DNA from: Escherichia phage HMD-P3
Direction: 5' to 3' (one strand)
Length of the DNA: 64,000 nt
Sequence record: PQ462667.1
The stretch's first letter is position 1. Each line of letters opens with the position of its first letter. A program made the translations under genes and the position numbers. Below the pieces are notes generated by a model that was given only the letters and a program-made list of their open reading frames with translations, was not told the origin of the DNA and ran no database searches. Shown one piece after another: positions 10,664 through 50,541 of the stretch.

Positions 10664-10888
10664 TTAGATATTCTCACACCTAAGATAGAAACATTCGTAA
10701 GCATCACCAGTAAACTCTTTATCTTGTAGTATACACTTAGCCTGGTCTTCTGGTACTCCAGCATCTAATAATTGTTGTTTACTTGGCTTTTCAGCGAATA
10801 CCTTTACAAAATATTCACCATCCTGATTGTATTCATTTATATCTCTAGTGAGGACATATACTTGCATTTGAAGTTCCTTGAAACACAA
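10664..10888 (-). CDS. hypothetical protein
   Basis: 74-aa ORF. Confidence 0.45.
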   Translation of the reverse strand: MCFKELQMQVYVLTRDINEYNQDGEYFVKVFAEKPSKQQLLDAGVPEDQAKCILQDKEFTGDAYECFYLRCENI

Positions 10889-10921
10889 AAGGCCAGAACA
10901 ATTAAGTCCTGGCCTCTAGAA

Positions 10922-13763: not shown

Positions 13764-13930
13764 TTTGATTCCTTCTCATCAATTTATAAAGTAATTATAC
13801 AGAAACTTAAGCATTTTAGCAAATAAAACTTTTAATTAAAATGCCTAATCCCGTGCCAATAGCAATACAAATGATTATAAGTATTGCTATCGCTTGTATG
13901 ATTCGTTTAATAATAGCCTCAGCTATATAC

Positions 13931-14521
13931 TTAGACATTTATATCACCACGTAATACAGCAGCTACATCTTCCCCTATTTGTAATACTTCGCCGGTAGTA
14001 CAATTAACTACTCTATCATAGCTAGTAAACTTACCAGACACAATATCCTCTAGTGGAACTGGAGTTTTACTCATTTCAAATGAGACATTAATATAACGTG
14101 GGTCACGTAAAGAAATAGTATGTACATGTCCGTGAATATTTAGTTTACCACGAAGTTCATTGGGGTGCAAAGGGCAGTGAGATAACCAAAACTTTTTGCC
14201 ACCTCCAGTCTGTTTACCTAGAGCCTGAATATCATCATAAACTTCCACTAAGTCCCTAATACTCAGTCCTTGACGCTCCGCATCATGATTACCCATAATC
14301 AGTTGATTAGGAACATTGTGGATAACCGACTTTAATTTGGCCAAGCCTTCACGACCTACTGCAATATCTCCTAGCAAAATAAGTTTTGTTCGCTTACCAA
14401 TATTCTTGGACAAAGTATCTAAAATATACTCATCGTGTTCTTTCATGTTCTTAAACCACGGACGGAAACGTAACGCTCCAGGGTGATCTAGGTGCAAGTC
14501 TGACCAGAATTTAACTTTCAT
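13931..14521 (-). CDS. calcineurin-like metallophosphoesterase
   Basis: Motifs SDLHLDH, GDIAVG, GNHD, GHVH. Confidence 0.7.
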   Translation of the reverse strand: MKVKFWSDLHLDHPGALRFRPWFKNMKEHDEYILDTLSKNIGKRTKLILLGDIAVGREGLAKLKSVIHNVPNQLIMGNHDAERQGLSIRDLVEVYDDIQALGKQTGGGKKFWLSHCPLHPNELRGKLNIHGHVHTISLRDPRYINVSFEMSKTPVPLEDIVSGKFTSYDRVVNCTTGEVLQIGEDVAAVLRGDINV

Positions 14522-14837
14522 TACTCTTTTCCTTATTCTGTATTAAACTATCAGCCCAAGAGGTTAACACTTTGGTTTTAAACTCCTCTGGAGTCTCTCC
14601 TTCCTTAAGGTCTACCTCATTAAGGTAGGTAGTAAGCCTTGTTTCTATCTCTATTTCAGCAGGAGAATTAAAACAAAAATTGACTGCTATTCCAGAATAT
14701 ATTACTCCGGTATCTCCTTTGACGAAAGCATTAACTAATGCCCTCCAACGAAGGGCATCAATACGCATTGCTCGTAATTCTTCTTGTACTTCTTTCATTC
14801 TATCATTCATTAAAGAATCCTCTGTACACCGCAGCAA
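14511..14837 (-). CDS. hypothetical protein
   Basis: 108-aa ORF. Confidence 0.5.
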   Translation of the reverse strand: MLRCTEDSLMNDRMKEVQEELRAMRIDALRWRALVNAFVKGDTGVIYSGIAVNFCFNSPAEIEIETRLTTYLNEVDLKEGETPEEFKTKVLTSWADSLIQNKEKSNES

Positions 14838-15685
14838 TTATTTTTATCTGTGGTAAATGTGGTGATTTTGCCCGTTTCATCATTAACTTGCGCAACCGTC
14901 AACTGCCCGTTGAAAACACCGCCAGTATCAAGATAAACACGGTTTTTATAAAGAAGTGGGTAAGGAACCCCAGTGTGTCCGTGGAACACAAAATCTACCC
15001 CCTTAACTTCTGGCACTTCTACCATGTATTTTTCTTTAAATCCTGCATAACGCTGGAAATATGGGTGTTCCTCACCATTTTTGGACAAGTAGAAGCCTAT
15101 TTCTTGGATTACATCTCGATCCCATAAATATGGTTCAACATGGTATCCCGTATGGTCATGTGGGTCTTCCTTAGCTGCTTCTACTTGCGCAATAAGATTA
15201 TCCCATACTGGGGTTTCTACTTCATTACCGCATTCTTTGTACGTAAAAGGTACACCACCATGAACAACACCAAATTTCTTACCACGATGTCTAACAGTTA
15301 GGAATACTGGCATTTTTTCAGCCATATCTTCGGCAATATTTTTAATGGTGTCTGCATCTAGTTCATTCATAGCCCACATACCACCATTATACATCCAATT
15401 AGCCCAATCTCCCACAATCATAAATTGGTCATGATTACCCCGGACACTGATAAAGCGTGGATTATATAGGAATTTGGCTAAAACTTGTAAGTTTTGTGTA
15501 CCTCGGTCAATTAAGTCACCAACACATACTACGCAATCTTTTTTGCTATTATACCCCGCTAATTTCAGCGCATCTTCTAGCAAATCGTTGCATCCATGAA
15601 TATCACCAACGAAAAACAAGTTGGCCTCATCCGGCACTACTAGAGTTTTATGTACATTGAATTCTTTTTTCATAATTATTCCCAA
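14810..15685 (-). CDS. serine/threonine protein phosphatase (PPP family, lambda-phosphatase-like)
   Basis: Motifs GDIHG, GDLIDRG, GNHD. Confidence 0.8.
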   Translation of the reverse strand: MGIIMKKEFNVHKTLVVPDEANLFFVGDIHGCNDLLEDALKLAGYNSKKDCVVCVGDLIDRGTQNLQVLAKFLYNPRFISVRGNHDQFMIVGDWANWMYNGGMWAMNELDADTIKNIAEDMAEKMPVFLTVRHRGKKFGVVHGGVPFTYKECGNEVETPVWDNLIAQVEAAKEDPHDHTGYHVEPYLWDRDVIQEIGFYLSKNGEEHPYFQRYAGFKEKYMVEVPEVKGVDFVFHGHTGVPYPLLYKNRVYLDTGGVFNGQLTVAQVNDETGKITTFTTDKNNCCGVQRIL

Positions 15686-15921
15686 ATAACAGTTAAAATA
15701 GTTGTGCCATAATCATTAGATAGTTGGAGAGTATAACCCTCTTTATAGAGGGCTTTTATAGCTTCATAACTAATTTCATCACGATTAAACTGTACAAAAG
15801 AGCCTCCAATCTCCACAGAAGAAACTATTCTCTTTTTAACATACTTATATGGTTTCTTTCTGCTATTAATAAGTGCAGCTCTATTTATCCTGGCTAAACG
15901 TTTTGCTTGTTCCGCTAACAT
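15676..15921 (-). CDS. hypothetical protein
   Basis: 81-aa ORF. Confidence 0.45.
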   Translation of the reverse strand: MLAEQAKRLARINRAALINSRKKPYKYVKKRIVSSVEIGGSFVQFNRDEISYEAIKALYKEGYTLQLSNDYGTTILTVIWE

Positions 15922-16018
15922 TTAATCCTCCAATCAATTTATATAAGTATTATACCAAAATTTTTAGCAAAAAGCAAGTAAAATAAAAGCCTGATCAGCT
16001 AAGATCAGGCTTTGTTTA

Positions 16019-16309
16019 TTAGTCCTCTGGATTATCATCCAGGAAATTTTTAATAGCTTCGTGCATAGTTTCTTTACGAAGCTGACGTCCAATCAGAATA
16101 TGATTAGCTTCTACTCGACCATTAGGTAAGCGATCCGCCAGAACTACTACAGGAACTTGGCGCACACCAAATTTCTGCATTAATTCTGTATTATCAGTCT
16201 CTTTATGGATTTCCAAATTATAGTCACTGACTACTTTATCAAATACTGGCTCAAACATTTTGCAAGGATTGCAAGTGGAACCTTTCAATAGATATACTAA
16301 TTTACTCAT
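16019..16309 (-). CDS. thioredoxin/glutaredoxin-fold redoxin-like protein
   Basis: CxxC motif (CNPC) near the N-terminus, size about 10 kDa. Confidence 0.5.
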   Translation of the reverse strand: MSKLVYLLKGSTCNPCKMFEPVFDKVVSDYNLEIHKETDNTELMQKFGVRQVPVVVLADRLPNGRVEANHILIGRQLRKETMHEAIKNFLDDNPED

Positions 16310-16733
16310 AGTTATTAATGGCCTCTAAGAAGTTTCTCATAGTTTTTACGGTTGCGGTGCTTAGATCAAGATTTACACCCAAACACTCGGTTAATGCCTC
16401 CTGATAAGGAGCCTTCAATCTGCCTTCTGGGACTTCTACCTTTTTATACTCTTTATTTTTGACCTTTTTAATCATAGTCTCTAGTACAAGAAGCGGTAAT
16501 TTAGCACCTTCAATATCAGTACCCAAAAGTTCAGTTAAAATTTTATTAAGATCAAGACGAGTTAACTTTTTGCCCTTAGACATAGATGCACCTACCTTTG
16601 TATCAATAGATTTTTCCGCTTTCTTTTCGAGCTTTTTGTACTCAGGAGAGTCATGATCACGGAGTGCAATGTTTAGCTCGTAATGTGGTATACGAAAATG
16701 TTCCGCCATTTGAGTATAGAAACGATCAGACAT
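16302..16733 (-). CDS. hypothetical protein
   Basis: 143-aa ORF. Confidence 0.5.
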   Translation of the reverse strand: MSDRFYTQMAEHFRIPHYELNIALRDHDSPEYKKLEKKAEKSIDTKVGASMSKGKKLTRLDLNKILTELLGTDIEGAKLPLLVLETMIKKVKNKEYKKVEVPEGRLKAPYQEALTECLGVNLDLSTATVKTMRNFLEAINNYE

Positions 16734-16808
16734 AATATATACCTCTCTTAACTAATTTATGTATATATTATATAATAACTAGGGCTAAAAGTCAACTACT
16801 TTTTTATC

Positions 16809-44460: not shown

Positions 44461-45300
44461 TTAAGAGGACATCTTAGCTTTAAGAGCTGGATGTGGATCA
44501 TATCCTTCCAGCTTGAAAGACCAGGCCGCAGTATTATTCTCTAATAAATCATAAAGATCTACAAATTCTGGCATTACTAGAGCTGGCAAAGGACGTGGTT
44601 TACGTTTCAATTGCTCCTCTACTTGCCCTATATGATCACTATAAATATGTGTATCTCCACCACTAAAGATGAGATAACGAGGTTTTAATCCAGTCAGTTT
44701 TGCTAGGATATGTGTTAGTAAAGCATAACTAGCAATATTGAAAGGTAGACCTAGAAAACAGTCTACAGAACGTTGTGTCCATTTAAGATCTAAGTATCCA
44801 TCATTACTTACGTAACATTGGAAACCATAGTGACACGGTGGTAATGCCATCTTATCCAGTTCAGCTACGTTCCATGCAGATACTAGGTGTCTACGACCAT
44901 GTGGATTATTCTTGAGACCCTCAATGAGTTCTAGGATCTGATCTCGTCCACCAAAGTTGCGCCATTGTTTACCATATACTGGCCCCAGATTACCTCTGTC
45001 ATAACCCATGCTTATGGCTTGGTCTTCATAATTTGGAGTCCAGATAGTCCACTGTCCTTCGTCACGCCCAAATGTGAATACTCGTAGATCATGGAGATTT
45101 GTAGATCCAGATAAAAACCATAGGAGTTCTCCAACTACCGATTTCCAAGCTAGACGTTTAGTGGTTACAGCTGGAAATCCTTCACGTAGATCGAACTTAG
45201 CATAGGAATCGAAAATCGAAACTGTGCCTGTCCCCGTACGATCGTTACGTGGTTCACCTAGTAAAATTACATCTGTTAGAATTTTTAAATATTGTTGCAT
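44461..45300 (-). CDS. thyA: thymidylate synthase
   Basis: PCH active-site cysteine; DCFLGLPFNIASYALL. Confidence 0.9.
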   Translation of the reverse strand: MQQYLKILTDVILLGEPRNDRTGTGTVSIFDSYAKFDLREGFPAVTTKRLAWKSVVGELLWFLSGSTNLHDLRVFTFGRDEGQWTIWTPNYEDQAISMGYDRGNLGPVYGKQWRNFGGRDQILELIEGLKNNPHGRRHLVSAWNVAELDKMALPPCHYGFQCYVSNDGYLDLKWTQRSVDCFLGLPFNIASYALLTHILAKLTGLKPRYLIFSGGDTHIYSDHIGQVEEQLKRKPRPLPALVMPEFVDLYDLLENNTAAWSFKLEGYDPHPALKAKMSS

Positions 45301-45833
45301 TAATAAGTAACCAATTCCTGTACAAATCGCAGGCTGTTATCACTGTTTGCGCCAGTTGCGTAAACTAAACGAGTAGATTCATAGTTGTAATCTAGAATCG
45401 TATTATCCAGATGTACATCTGCCTCTAGTTTTTGATTACTAAAGATTGTGGATACGAAAGCACTTTCAATATGACCATGAATATACATTTCGTACAGTAA
45501 TGTTGCGCCACCTAAAACCACTGTCTGTTGATCTTTTAAGAATGTAGGTAATGTATCCCCAATCTTAGAAATTGGAGTGTAAATACCATGTTTAATATCA
45601 TCAGGCAGAGGACGATCCGCACGAATAAAGAGGTCAGATTCTCCAATCATACGTTGCCGAACAACTTCTGGAAGTGCTAAATAAGTACCCGCACCAATGA
45701 TGATGTTATCTGGGTTCAACACGTCCAGTTGAGAGTAGAAAGCATCTAGTTCTTCTTTGAAGGAACCCCATGGAAGTTTACCTCGGAGGCCGAACTCCCC
45801 ATTCGGCCCAACTGCATATAATGCCGTTATCAT
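45300..45833 (-). CDS. frd: dihydrofolate reductase
   Basis: AVGPNGEFGLRGKLPW N-terminal motif; ATGA overlap with thyA. Confidence 0.75.
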   Translation of the reverse strand: MITALYAVGPNGEFGLRGKLPWGSFKEELDAFYSQLDVLNPDNIIIGAGTYLALPEVVRQRMIGESDLFIRADRPLPDDIKHGIYTPISKIGDTLPTFLKDQQTVVLGGATLLYEMYIHGHIESAFVSTIFSNQKLEADVHLDNTILDYNYESTRLVYATGANSDNSLRFVQELVTY

Positions 45834-46975
45834 AAGAAATCTCCAAATTCATTGCCCAGATCTTTCAGAGTATCAGTAGAGGTCTCAGTTACCTGACCTA
45901 CACGGTATGCTGCACCAATCTGGATTTCTTGTGGAGCAGGCTGTAGAGAAGTAGTATCCAACCAGTTCATGATCCACGGAATAGGGTTTTTGGTAATTAC
46001 TGGTAAGTGACTAGGCCATTCTACACCAATGTGCATAAATGCGTTACGTCCCACAAAGTACAAATACTCTTCTAGAAGTTCTGCGTTCAAACCAATCAGG
46101 CTACGACCTTTGAAAATGAAATGACCCCATTCAATTTCAGTTTTCAGAGTTTTCAGGAGCTGTGCTGGTGCTTTAGCCACTGCTTCATCTACCAGATCTT
46201 TGTCAAATTGCTGAAACATAATCTGGATGATTGCTTTGGACATCTGAGTATGCAGAGCTTCATCTTTAGCGATTAATTGCAGATTTTTAGCAATACCTTG
46301 CAGAATATCGTTCTCTGCTAATGCAAAGGTACATGCAAAGGATGCGTAAAACTGCATTGCTTCCAGACCATAGATCGCAAAGTAAGCGTCTAATAGTTTA
46401 GCCTGAGTTTCACGTTTAACTTCAGGGAACTCAGTTTCTGGGTATGTATTGTCGCCACGATGATCGCGTACTGCGATGAAATACTGACCTAACTGGTACA
46501 GTTCATCGAATAGTTCAACAGAATCAGCGATGCGTGCGAATGCTTCTTGGTTTTTGGTTACAGAATCAATAAATTCTGCTGGATCAGTTAACACATTACG
46601 AATAATATTGCTATAAGCACGACTATGCAGATCTTCAAAATAGCTCCACTGCTTGAGCATACCTTCCAATTCTGGACGACTTACAAGCGGCATAATAGCT
46701 GCTTCAGGAGCACGACTGATAAAGGAGTCGGTTTGGGTTTGCCATGCTAAGTTCAGGAGTGTAATTTCCTGAATTTCACGCGGAAGGTTAGGCCATTGTT
46801 TCTTATCTGCTTCCAGACTGATTTCAGTTTCAGTCCAAAATTGAGAGCGTTGCAGTAGTGCCAGACGTTCTAGTTCTGGATGTGCTACACGTACGTAATC
46901 TGCGATACCGAGAGAATCTCCCAGGAAAAGGTCAGCGTTAGTATGATCCCAATTCAGGTTTAGTAAAGTAGTCAT
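45830..46975 (-). CDS. nrdB: ribonucleotide reductase class Ia small subunit
   Basis: Di-iron ligand pattern (...EALH...), 381 aa. Confidence 0.85.
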   Translation of the reverse strand: MTTLLNLNWDHTNADLFLGDSLGIADYVRVAHPELERLALLQRSQFWTETEISLEADKKQWPNLPREIQEITLLNLAWQTQTDSFISRAPEAAIMPLVSRPELEGMLKQWSYFEDLHSRAYSNIIRNVLTDPAEFIDSVTKNQEAFARIADSVELFDELYQLGQYFIAVRDHRGDNTYPETEFPEVKRETQAKLLDAYFAIYGLEAMQFYASFACTFALAENDILQGIAKNLQLIAKDEALHTQMSKAIIQIMFQQFDKDLVDEAVAKAPAQLLKTLKTEIEWGHFIFKGRSLIGLNAELLEEYLYFVGRNAFMHIGVEWPSHLPVITKNPIPWIMNWLDTTSLQPAPQEIQIGAAYRVGQVTETSTDTLKDLGNEFGDFL

Positions 46976-47006
46976 TGATTTTCCTCTTTCTCACTATTTC
47001 AGGAAT

Positions 47007-47035
47007 ATTATAGCAAATCTGGTAGAGATTAGCAA
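47007..47035 (-). promoter_or_regulatory. T5-type promoter (TTGCTA-N17-TATAAT) for nrdB
   Basis: Minus-strand reading: ttgctaatctctaccagatttgctataat. Confidence 0.55.
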
Positions 47036-47045
47036 GTAAAATTTC

Positions 47046-47075
47046 AAAGAAAAAGGAGACCCGAAGATCTCCTTG
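47046..47075. terminator. hairpin with flanking A- and T-runs between nrdA and nrdB
   Basis: aaaaaggagacccgaagatctccttgttttt. Confidence 0.5.
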
Positions 47076-47081
47076 TTTTTA

Positions 47082-49412
47082 TTAAATAGTACAACCACCG
47101 GATGCACAACCGGCTGCTTCTTCTCCAGCACCTCCACCATTTGCGGTATTGAAGTTAGCATAATACCAAGTTTTCCACCCATACTTAACAGCAGTCATGA
47201 AATCACGAACTACTACTGGGCCAGGAATGATTTCATTCTCAAACTTGGTGTAGTCATAGTACATATTCGTACTGATAGACTGACTGAAGAATTTCTGCAT
47301 AGTTGCTACCCATTTGATCCACTCGATACGATCTACATCATAAGCCAGTTTATAGCTCATTAACGTTTCCCAATCGGTTGCGCCTGGAGCAATTGCAATT
47401 ACTTTATTTACTGCACTACCTTTAATAGATACAATCTTACGGGGTGGTTCGATAGAGTTAGTAACACCTAACAGAACAGAAGAACTTTCCCCTGGCATCT
47501 GAGCAGTCAGAACAGAGTTACGCATACCATATTTCAGAATATCTGCACGCAGAGACTCCCAATCCATTTCTAGACCTACGGATACCAGTTCATCAACAGT
47601 TTTCTTGTACGTGTCGATTACCAGAATTCCTTTAGATGGTTTAGTACGATCAAACCACTCACATGCACCCTGTTCTTTAGCTAGGCGTACAGAGGCTTTA
47701 TGCAGGAAGTAAGACAGTTTTTCAGCTTCACGGTGAATCCAGTTACGGGCTTCAATACCTTCATAAGCCAGACCTTCTGCCGCCATTGCACCTGCTGCGT
47801 TCATCAGGCCAATACCAACATTACGACGTTTCTTAGCCGTATATTCCATAGTTGGGAACGGATAATCCTGAATTTCAATAATTGTATCAACGAATTTCAG
47901 GAGGATGTAGCAAGTTTTTTCCCACTCAGCCAAAGATTCCATGCGCCCAAGTACAACACCACCTAAGTTACACAGAGATACTTCACCAATATCCTCCGGC
48001 TTCATTTGATCAAGCTGCTCTTTTGTCTTGTACAGCTCTGTAATGTGATGGAACGGGCGTGTAGGCTGAGTAATTTCAACACAAAGGTTTGTCATACGGA
48101 TCGGATCAAGGAAGTTACCGTGACGATTAGATTCCCCGATGTGATGAGCATACATACGTCCTGTTTCCATTCGGATACGTAGCCAAGTATCTAGGATTTC
48201 TTTTGCAGAGACTTTAGGAGCTGCTGGAACTGTTTTTCCTTCGTGGTCGATCTTTGTAAGAGATGCCACACGTTTCTCCGCTGCCACGTAGATTTCTTCA
48301 AATTTAGCCTCGTCATCACTATAAAACGCTTCATGAACTTCTGGAGCATAGAAGTATGACATTAGCGTAATATCTTCGTTTTTCAGATAACGTTTTAACA
48401 AAAGATTGTTGAAGCTCAGAGAGTAATCCATCTTATCGATTTTATTCTCATCTGTAGCACGTTGTTGCTTAACCTGCATCAATTGAATGATTTCAGGGTC
48501 GAAGTATGGATAAGACACTGTAGCAGAACCACCACGAGTTTGCTGAGTATTGGCCTTTACTGAGCGGTCAATGTGTCGATAATATGGCAGTTTTCCGGAA
48601 TGCGGGAATGCCCCATTTCGCACCGGATCAGCAATTGATCGGCTTTCAAGATGATACCCGATTCCCGCTCTGGCTGCGACCATTTTGAAGACGATGTGCT
48701 CGGCGGTGTCGATTGAATCCAACGTGTCAGTGGAATCCACGAGGCAGCAACTAGCAAATCCACGGTCACTAGAGCGCAGACCAACCAGTGGCGGCGTAGG
48801 AACGTTAATTTTGTGGAGCGACATTGCGTTGTAGAGGTCGATTGCATCTAGAATTGTCCAGTTAGGTTGAGATAGCATCGCCATTGCCATACCCATGTAG
48901 GCAAACTGCGGAGTTTCATAAATTTCACCAGTGGCTATGTTACGGCGGGAATACTTATCAAAGAACTGCTTCAGCCCACCACTAGTAAAAAGACGGTCAC
49001 GATCATGGTCGATAACCTGATTCAGAGCTTCAAATTGCTCATCGGTAATCCATGCACTCATGTCTTCCCATGCACCTACGCTAACCATATGGTCATGGAA
49101 GAAACGCAGAGAAGGCGGTTCGAAGGAATCATAAAGGCGTTTACGCATTTGCGCAAGACGTAATTCCTTTGCTGGCACATCATATGCTGGATTATCTTTG
49201 ATAAGACTTTCAGCAGCTTTAATTAATGCATCCATCAGAGTGTCGGAATCTACAACCCCTTTAGGCAGAGTTTTTTGAGCAGCCATAGTAATGGCTGACC
49301 AACTTACATCAACTGTTTTGCAACCATACTCTGCCCAACCATTGATTTTTTCAGGAGCAAAGTCTTCTACAGTACCGTCACGTTTAATTACTTTTTCAAT
49401 GCGATGGCTCAT
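47082..49412 (-). CDS. nrdA: ribonucleotide reductase class Ia large subunit
   Basis: Start moved to MSHRIEKVIKRDG (ATP-cone, RBS aaaggaaag); active-site region NLCVEI...; 776 aa. Confidence 0.9.
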   Translation of the reverse strand: MSHRIEKVIKRDGTVEDFAPEKINGWAEYGCKTVDVSWSAITMAAQKTLPKGVVDSDTLMDALIKAAESLIKDNPAYDVPAKELRLAQMRKRLYDSFEPPSLRFFHDHMVSVGAWEDMSAWITDEQFEALNQVIDHDRDRLFTSGGLKQFFDKYSRRNIATGEIYETPQFAYMGMAMAMLSQPNWTILDAIDLYNAMSLHKINVPTPPLVGLRSSDRGFASCCLVDSTDTLDSIDTAEHIVFKMVAARAGIGYHLESRSIADPVRNGAFPHSGKLPYYRHIDRSVKANTQQTRGGSATVSYPYFDPEIIQLMQVKQQRATDENKIDKMDYSLSFNNLLLKRYLKNEDITLMSYFYAPEVHEAFYSDDEAKFEEIYVAAEKRVASLTKIDHEGKTVPAAPKVSAKEILDTWLRIRMETGRMYAHHIGESNRHGNFLDPIRMTNLCVEITQPTRPFHHITELYKTKEQLDQMKPEDIGEVSLCNLGGVVLGRMESLAEWEKTCYILLKFVDTIIEIQDYPFPTMEYTAKKRRNVGIGLMNAAGAMAAEGLAYEGIEARNWIHREAEKLSYFLHKASVRLAKEQGACEWFDRTKPSKGILVIDTYKKTVDELVSVGLEMDWESLRADILKYGMRNSVLTAQMPGESSSVLLGVTNSIEPPRKIVSIKGSAVNKVIAIAPGATDWETLMSYKLAYDVDRIEWIKWVATMQKFFSQSISTNMYYDYTKFENEIIPGPVVVRDFMTAVKYGWKTWYYANFNTANGGGAGEEAAGCASGGCTI

Positions 49413-49562
49413 TTGGCTTTCCTTTTTATAGTTATCAGGATTTAAGGAATATTCTACTTTATTATCGGTCATTAGGCAAATAAAATTTTCTGATAGAAAA
49501 GGCCCGAGTATTTTCATACCCAGGCCCTATATATTACCAGTCTAGCTTTTTAGCTTATTCAA

Positions 49563-49847
49563 TTACTTTAGCTCTCTAGCTACTTCTTTTAATAGAATAT
49601 CTATGGAGGTGCTCAGCTCGTTATAATTGAATGGTTTATTTGGATTTGAGGTTACAATTTTCCACGCTAGGGTTGTCTTAGGACTTTCTTCCCCTTCCTT
49701 ACGTGTAATCATATTAGCAGCACTCAGTGAAGTACGATGTATTTTAGTTTTACGGCTCAGATGAACGACGTTTCCCATATTACACCTTCCCCATGTCTTT
49801 AAAAATATCATAGAATGCTTTAGACTCAACAGAACGAACGTTATCAA
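49563..49847 (-). CDS. hypothetical protein
   Basis: 94-aa ORF. Confidence 0.45.
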   Translation of the reverse strand: MITFVLLSLKHSMIFLKTWGRCNMGNVVHLSRKTKIHRTSLSAANMITRKEGEESPKTTLAWKIVTSNPNKPFNYNELSTSIDILLKEVARELK

Positions 49848-50541
49848 TCAATTCGATCATTGAGAATGGGGCATTTTCGTATTTCTCATAGACTTCCATA
49901 AGGAGCGCTAGACCTGAGTCACCTTTAATGTCTTTCTGAGCTATATCTCCGCAGATAATTAAACGGCAGTCTTGCCCTACACGAGTTAGGAGACAAATCA
50001 TTGCCTCAACGGAAATATTCTGAGCTTCATCGACAATTACATAGGAGTTGTTGAAAGTTCTGCCACGAGCATGTTCGATAGCCAAAAATTTAATTTTCTG
50101 ACGTTCGACATATCCTTTATATGCATGATCGCCGATGGCCCATTTCATACCATCAGCTATTGGCTCCAACCAAGGCTCTAGCTTTTCCGCTAGATCACCA
50201 GGAAGCATACCAAGAGACTTACCTAGAGGTTCATTAGGACGTACGAGGATCACTTGCTCAATATCTGAGTGAATGTCTACGAGTTCCTGAGCTGCAAGAA
50301 CGGACGGAATAAAGGTTTTACCAGTACCTGGCTCACCTATACCTACAGTCACTGTGTTGTTCTTGATCATATTGATATATGATTTTTGCTCGCGGTTTTT
50401 ACCTACTAGGGATTTAGCAACTGGGTTAGCGTAATCAGTAGAAAAATCAGCCTGAATTACGTTATTCTCATATTTGTTGCCACGCTTTCTTGAACCATTG
50501 CGGTTCTCTCTTTTTTGACGTGCTTTTCCCATAAATAACAC
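49780..50541 (-). CDS. phoH: PhoH-like ATPase
   Basis: Walker A GEPGTGKTF; PhoH-like size and layout. Confidence 0.8.
   Translation of the reverse strand: MLFMGKARQKRENRNGSRKRGNKYENNVIQADFSTDYANPVAKSLVGKNREQKSYINMIKNNTVTVGIGEPGTGKTFIPSVLAAQELVDIHSDIEQVILVRPNEPLGKSLGMLPGDLAEKLEPWLEPIADGMKWAIGDHAYKGYVERQKIKFLAIEHARGRTFNNSYVIVDEAQNISVEAMICLLTRVGQDCRLIICGDIAQKDIKGDSGLALLMEVYEKYENAPFSMIELIDNVRSVESKAFYDIFKDMGKV

Follow-up and report, generated by a model that had tools for sequence, protein, structure and literature searches.

The serine/threonine phosphatase of phage lambda (NinI, or lambda phosphatase) and its homolog Ppp of phage P1 are both products of non-essential genes. In phage T4, the thioredoxin-like protein NrdC reduces the phage ribonucleotide reductase (RNR). 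Among small phage metallophosphoesterases (MPEs), Gp48 of mycobacteriophage A10ZJ24 is an early-expressed DNase that acts in counter-defense (PMC12287305). Genes for a lambda-type phosphatase, a small MPE and a thioredoxin-fold protein lie close together in Escherichia phage HMD-P3, in a stretch of 64,000 nucleotides (sequence record PQ462667.1) that is referred to here as the window. Judged by sequence, they belong to the classical early region of a T5-like phage, in a block whose genes map to T5.034 through T5.038. As a standard T5-like early block, it would supply three accessory enzymes, unrelated to each other and most likely independent in their action. Our direct observations cover gene identities, protein folds and catalytic residues, together with the transcription signals of the block, its conservation and the purifying selection on it.

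Over a 3.3-kb region, the DNA is 96-99% identical to that of dozens of deposited T5-like phages (Demerecviridae), among them HMD-7 of Salmonella (98.7%) and AKFV33 of Escherichia. Orthologs were assigned against the annotated records of AKFV33 and T5 (NC_005859). The orthologs of T5.034, T5.035 and T5.037 have been named for years in the T5 record, and the window adds nothing new in this respect. All genes of the block are under purifying selection and the three enzyme genes are intact, with ratios of nonsynonymous to synonymous polymorphism (pN/pS) of 0.06 for the MPE, 0.09 for the phosphatase, 0.10 for the thioredoxin-fold protein and 0.19 for the T5.036-like gene.

Two transcription units in the early block

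Every gene in the region lies on the minus strand. A strong hairpin with a T-rich tail is located directly 3' of the thioredoxin stop codon and is followed, in order, by a T5-consensus promoter, a GGAGG ribosome-binding site and the ATG (15921) of an 81-aa gene (Table 1). The T5 and AKFV33 records have a terminator and a promoter annotated at the same place, between the thioredoxin and phosphatase units. In the window, this promoter was read directly from the sequence and was not listed by a generic sigma-70 scan. Given the terminator and T5-consensus promoter behind it, the thioredoxin gene ends the preceding unit, predicted to consist of two genes (T5.038-like and thioredoxin) that are driven by a promoter at 16795..16767. 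The phosphatase unit is predicted to run from the 81-aa gene through the phosphatase, a 99-aa open reading frame (ORF) and the MPE to a hydrophobic 40-aa ORF. Stop and start codons overlap as TAATG at 14810 and again at 14521; the 40-aa ORF has its ATG at 13938, ahead of the MPE stop codon at 13931. No terminator was found directly beyond the 40-aa ORF. On the minus strand the next strong one is at 10917..10888, and the T5.033-like gene is preceded by a further promoter (13822..13794).

This layout bears on an original prediction, made from the sequence alone, that two phosphatases separated by one small ORF form an early operon and are followed by a CxxC thioredoxin-fold gene. The operon of the two phosphatases holds because their reading frames overlap or abut within a single unit, and the small ORF between them is the 99-aa ORF. 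The redoxin gene, in contrast, does not belong to that operon, as a terminator and a promoter intervene; it precedes the phosphatases on the coding strand rather than following them, and the 81-aa gene between it and the phosphatase had been omitted. The thioredoxin gene is transcriptionally separate, which matters to any user of the three-gene operon idea. The 40-aa membrane ORF beyond the MPE had also been passed over.

Table 1. Genes and transcription signals of the early block, with window coordinates
Feature	Coordinates	Strand	Description
T5.038-like gene	16733..16302	minus	143 aa; PHROG 4328; pN/pS 0.05
T5.037 ortholog, thioredoxin-fold protein	16309..16019	minus	96 aa; PF00085 and PF13192; PHROG 22
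Intrinsic terminator	16013..15986	minus	11-bp stem, 6-nt loop, T-rich tail
T5-consensus early promoter	15977..15949	minus	TTGCTT 15977-15972, 17-nt spacer, TATAAT 15954-15949
T5.036 ortholog	15921..15676	minus	81 aa; first gene of phosphatase transcription unit
T5.035 ortholog, NinI-like Ser/Thr phosphatase	15673..14810	minus	287 aa
99-aa ORF	14810..14511	minus	starts with ATG at 14810; PHROG 14979, E=3e-62
T5.034 ortholog, MPE	14521..13931	minus	196 aa; COG4186/aq_1665 family
Hydrophobic ORF	13938..13816	minus	40 aa; overlaps MPE stop codon

The phosphatase, the metallophosphoesterase and the redoxin

The phosphatase is 92% identical to T5.035 of T5. Its identification as a PPP-family enzyme stood, with a corrected 5' end: the start is most likely the ATG at 15673 rather than the TTG at 15685. 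It carries the PPP motifs G23-D24-I25-H26-G27, G52-D53-L54-I55-D56-R57-G58 and G79-N80-H81-D82, most positions of which are invariant across 47 homologs, as are both H138 and H233, which align with H139 and H186 of lambda phosphatase (PDB 1G5B). The predicted metal ligands are D24, H26, D53, N80, H138 and H233, with H81 as the predicted general acid and R57 and R186 predicted to bind phosphate. The fold superposes on that of lambda phosphatase, except for a segment of ~65 residues that adjoins the active site. This helical insert comprises four helices (~155-220), has no counterpart in lambda phosphatase and is common only to T5-like relatives. This T5-lineage insert probably narrows the substrate range. 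Early in infection, the T5.035-type enzyme would hydrolyze phosphomonoesters, with phospho-Ser/Thr/Tyr of host proteins as the most likely targets.

In sequence and structure, the phosphatase is clearly nearest to lambda phosphatase and PrpA/PrpB (35% versus 19-24% identity). Its scores against the NCBIfam PrpA and PrpB equivalogs (NF008516 / NF007425) were far below the cut-offs, at 98.9 versus 326 bits and 80 versus 332 bits, and it is thus a homolog rather than an ortholog of PrpA/PrpB. It did not reach the curated cut-off for ApaH, and ApaH was not its closest structural neighbor. Lambda phosphatase has homologs in 1,325 phage records, among them lambdoid NinI, P1 Ppp and those of rV5-like and Vibrio phages. 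T5.035 ('orf5c') has been used in the literature as a phylogenetic marker only.

The predicted calcineurin-like phosphoesterase gene was confirmed, and the protein has five metallophosphoesterase motifs (D8-x-H10, G51-D52, G77-N78-H79-D80, H115 and G131-H132-x-H134), which are invariant in 51 sequences. The Pfam gathering thresholds were narrowly missed (PF00149, 20.6 versus 21.5 bits; PF12850, 22.5 versus 27 bits), and superfamily membership follows from motifs, profile and fold together. The protein was assigned to PHROG 547 / COG4186, the aq_1665-like small metallophosphoesterases, and PDB entry 1XM7 is its only close solved relative, with sequence and fold similarity well above that of other MPE families. 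A fold search of BFVD returned matches named only 'putative phosphoesterase'. With a complete two-metal site, the T5.034-type MPE would most likely cleave a nucleotide or nucleic-acid phosphoester.

The COG4186 family is large, with 14,941 representatives of 50%-identity clusters (E<=1e-10) that are mostly single-domain proteins of 160-200 aa. Six members (P0206, P0209, P0232, P0250, P0272 and P0290) are 430-514 aa long and match the MPE profile in two separated stretches, which suggests a tandem duplication or the insertion of an intein or other domain. Phage records with the MPE number 1,196 and span T5-like, jumbo, Acinetobacter T4-like, Schizotequatrovirus, Kuravirus, Ackermannviridae and Herelleviridae phages as well as actinophages; it stands alone in many large lytic phages. 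The surroundings of the MPE in other phages are ordinary early, replication or nucleotide-metabolism genes: SbcD-like and SbcC-like genes flank it in Acinetobacter phages, NrdG is its neighbor in ValKK3, in SU10 it lies downstream of the DNA polymerase gene, and a Kuttervirus has it close to an exonuclease and a dCMP deaminase. A bacterial homolog in Motiliproteus is situated in a phage-like region with DNA pol A, RNase T and T4_Y16D, and therefore says nothing on a cellular setting apart from phages. Copies that are split into two ORFs, matched piecewise or truncated occur in a few phages (L025 3998-4589; L059 3935-4498; H38, H41). Either these reflect sequencing errors or they are natural pseudogenes, in which case the gene would be dispensable. 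A 182-aa homolog of Acinetobacter phage AB1I1M-1 (L009 3992-4540) carries the label 'nicotinate phosphoribosyltransferase / putative serine/threonine protein phosphatase', of which the NAD part looks erroneous. A link between the MPE and NAD salvage was considered and discarded, since the Staphylococcus phage case is a distant neighbor and the Acinetobacter phage case this mislabelled product.

The MPE locus is mosaic. When positions 13931-14810 of the window were compared with T5 (L002 4917-5438), the MPE was 54% identical to T5.034 and the flanking DNA, which includes the phosphatase 3' end, the 40-aa ORF and promoter, was ~97% identical. T5.034 has 173 aa versus 196 aa here; it lacks a 4-residue and a 19-residue segment, and the MPE of the window has the longer C-terminus. 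On sequence grounds, the MPE appears as a divergent allele of T5.034, placed by allelic replacement at the locus. Two MPE alleles circulate among T5-like phages, and the present one was found in ~270 records. The spacing between phosphatase and MPE among T5-like loci varies from 0 to ~580 bp.

Linkage of the two phosphoesterase genes was assessed in 80 IMG/VR loci carrying the small MPE, by the presence of a lambda-phosphatase-like gene within 4 kb. Such a gene was present in all 26 T5-like loci versus 2 of the 54 others, from which it follows that the pairing is mostly inherited lineage synteny and not a recurrent module, a count that speaks for independence of the two enzymes; a general pairing of both enzymes across phages was rejected on the same count. 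In the two exceptions, the phosphatase is upstream of the MPE with a 62-aa ORF between them (L041, 3076-4543) or immediately downstream (L045, 3947-5341). Within the lineage, even Pectobacterium phage My1, a distant T5-like relative, keeps the order thioredoxin-x-phosphatase-x-MPE (44-49% identity).

The redoxin is 99% identical to T5.037, in the same gene order and promoter/terminator layout as in T5. Its identity as a CxxC thioredoxin-fold protein was upheld, with scores above the Pfam gathering thresholds for PF00085 (Thioredoxin; 26.2 versus 23.5 bits) and PF13192 (Thioredoxin_3; 26.3 versus 24.8 bits). Neither cysteine of the active site C13-N-P-C16 varies among homologs, My1 included. 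P53 falls on the cis-Pro position of thioredoxins, and the best solved relatives in the PDB are thioredoxins. The protein is not a canonical TrxA (TIGR01068; T-C-N-P-C motif, 28.6 versus 96.8 bits) and does not match NrdH (TIGR02194; 19.8 versus 85.75 bits). The window encodes a class Ia RNR on the minus strand (NrdA, 49517..47082; NrdB, 46975..45830). With this enzyme in the same genome, and by analogy with T4 NrdC, the phage RNR is the obvious client of the redoxin, which most likely gives it reducing equivalents as NrdC does in T4. The RNR genes are part of a minus-strand nucleotide-metabolism cluster (44461-50541) comprising thymidylate synthase ThyA (44461-45300), NrdB, NrdA and a PhoH-like ATPase (49780-50541).

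Weighing the roles of the block

We lean, with modest confidence, towards three independent early accessory enzymes: a lambda-type phosphatase, a COG4186 MPE, and a redoxin made from a separate transcript and probably serving RNR. Several points weigh against this reading. The substrates and biological roles of all three proteins are inferred. Lambda ninI is non-essential. The closest solved relative of the MPE, 1XM7, is a structural-genomics protein with no assigned function, so that the match is uninformative on the MPE substrate. RNR is the likeliest partner of the redoxin on the two grounds of genomic co-occurrence and analogy with T4, and on those only. Finally, the pairings at L041 and L045, which are metagenomic and unrelated to T5, are slightly above chance by a rough estimate and hint at coupling of the two phosphoesterases.

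The original prediction had read the pair of phosphatases as plausibly counter-defensive, removing phosphorylation-based host signals or nucleotide second messengers. We regard as reasonable but unlikely a role in which one or both enzymes remove immune signals of the host, the phosphatase by reversing phosphorylation by kinase-based defenses or toxins and the MPE by degrading cyclic or linear nucleotide messengers, with CBASS, Pycsar, Thoeris and type III CRISPR as examples of their sources. The genes are early, accessory-looking and located in a region generally held to serve host takeover and anti-immunity (PMC10644984), and a mosaic locus with a variable slot, such as that of the MPE, is often typical of arms-race accessory loci. 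Counter-defense is proven for phosphatases and phosphoesterases of other families in phages: Gp48 is one case, T5 Dmp, a deoxynucleoside monophosphate (dNMP) phosphatase of the pre-early region, acts against Kongming, and Adpp acts against aRES. Adpp, described as a 'phage phosphatase', is a Macro-domain protein. Both genes of the block are, however, near-universal and strongly constrained in the lineage, which a housekeeping role in the infection cycle fits too; the MPE lies among replication and nucleotide-metabolism genes in other phages; and no experiment in the literature links T5.034, T5.035 or T5.037 to counter-defense. A PADLOC scan gave no matches, no sequence or fold similarity was detected to Acb1, Apyc1 or known defense-system proteins, and literature searches on T5.034, T5.035, T5.037, NinI with defense, COG4186/1XM7 and T5 early transcriptomes found no functional data.

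Quite improbable, in our estimate, is the more specific proposal of a co-transcribed counter-defense pair, in which the phosphatase with its helical insert would reverse kinase-mediated immune or toxin signaling and the COG4186 MPE would destroy a nucleotide messenger. If true, it would provide the first function for a very large COG4186 phage family, and the replacement of the MPE allele together with the L041 and L045 pairings would be signs of an arms race.

We likewise give little credence to the MPE being a DNA nuclease that processes or degrades host or phage DNA, in the manner of mycobacteriophage Gp48, the Pseudomonas putida MPE nuclease or Mre11/SbcD. That Gp48 is a DNase shows what a small phage MPE can do, the gene lies between SbcD-like and SbcC-like genes in Acinetobacter T4-like phages, and there is a weak NCBIfam match to the PdeM endonuclease. 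This match reached 25 bits against a cut-off of 150, and nuclease matches in general were no better than those to LpxH, MJ0936 or YfcE, so that they reflect the superfamily only. The Gp48/Bxb1 gp47 family was ruled out as the same family as the MPE: Bxb1 gp47 matches PHROG 221 rather than 547, the hhalign probability was 1.9% and only the GHxH motif was aligned.

A very improbable alternative has the T5.035-type enzyme act on nucleotides or RNA ends instead of proteins, either as an ApaH-like Np4N hydrolase or decapping enzyme, or as a Pnkp-like enzyme healing the 2',3'-cyclic-phosphate/3'-phosphate ends of tRNAs cleaved by host anticodon nucleases. Lambda phosphatase hydrolyzes 2',3'-cyclic nucleotides in vitro, the domain is also present in PHROG 8238 'RNA ligase' fusion proteins, and tRNA-cleaving defenses are known to target T5-like phages. 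In NCBIfam the phosphatase also has partial matches, of 60 bits to ApaH and 38 bits to bacterial Pnkp, but these are far under the cut-offs and clearly weaker than the 98.9 bits that place it closer to lambda phosphatase and PrpA/PrpB, and no kinase or ligase partner gene was found in the operon.

The interest of the three-enzyme block lies in its two phosphoesterases. Neither family has a known in vivo role in phages and no in vivo target of a phage lambda-type phosphatase is known, and the COG4186 small MPE is among the more widespread phage enzymes without an assigned function (>1,100 phage genomes, ~15,000 cluster representatives). A T5-like phage, where a single early transcript carries both genes, would be a handy system for knock-outs and substrate screens.

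Small genes of the block and comparison with known systems

The block lies downstream of genes for a holin, an endolysin, a Clp-like protease and a dNMP kinase, and upstream of DUF7020/T5.033. The T5.038-like gene is the most constrained in the block after the T5.033-like gene, and its product matches PHROG 624 'DNA binding protein' weakly (E=1.4e-8). RefSeq records and PHROG 7354 call the T5.036 ortholog a 'major head protein', which is implausible for an early gene of 81 aa and probably a propagated misannotation. AKFV33 (L001 6427-6804) has an extra 378-bp gene, orf037, between its T5.036 ortholog and the terminator/promoter junction; the gene is absent from the window (15922-16018) and from T5, marking another variable slot.

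AKFV33 shares the 99-aa ORF, whereas T5 lacks it. The ORF was found in only 93 phage records, all T5-like, with a pN/pS of 0.24 based on few differences. It was rejected as an obligate partner of the present MPE allele, given the 93 records versus the ~270 that carry the allele, nor is it related to the 73-aa ORF that occupies this position in phage My1. The 40-aa ORF has no annotation in the T5 and AKFV33 records. Its differences from T5 are mostly synonymous (GGC>GGT, ACG>ACA, TTA>CTA, GGC>GGT) and its pN/pS is likewise 0.24 (19 distinct orthologs); it is probably a real gene for a small membrane protein.

Among described systems, Gp48 (PMC12287305) resembles the MPE in being a small early phage metallophosphoesterase with five MPE motifs; its nuclease and counter-defense roles are not transferable because the family is different. 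Aq_1665 of Aquifex aeolicus (1XM7), a COG4186 'predicted phosphoesterase', is without the extra C-terminal beta-hairpin and helix (~170-196) of the phage MPE. The redoxin shares the thioredoxin fold, the CxxC motif and the aligned cis-Pro with T4 NrdC-type proteins, bacterial thioredoxins and NrdH, and differs from canonical thioredoxin in having CNPC instead of WCGPC and a short N-terminus. The phosphatase has 287 aa versus 221 aa in lambda phosphatase and, unlike lambda ninI, the T5.035-type gene belongs to a strictly lytic phage, in which a T5 early promoter drives it.

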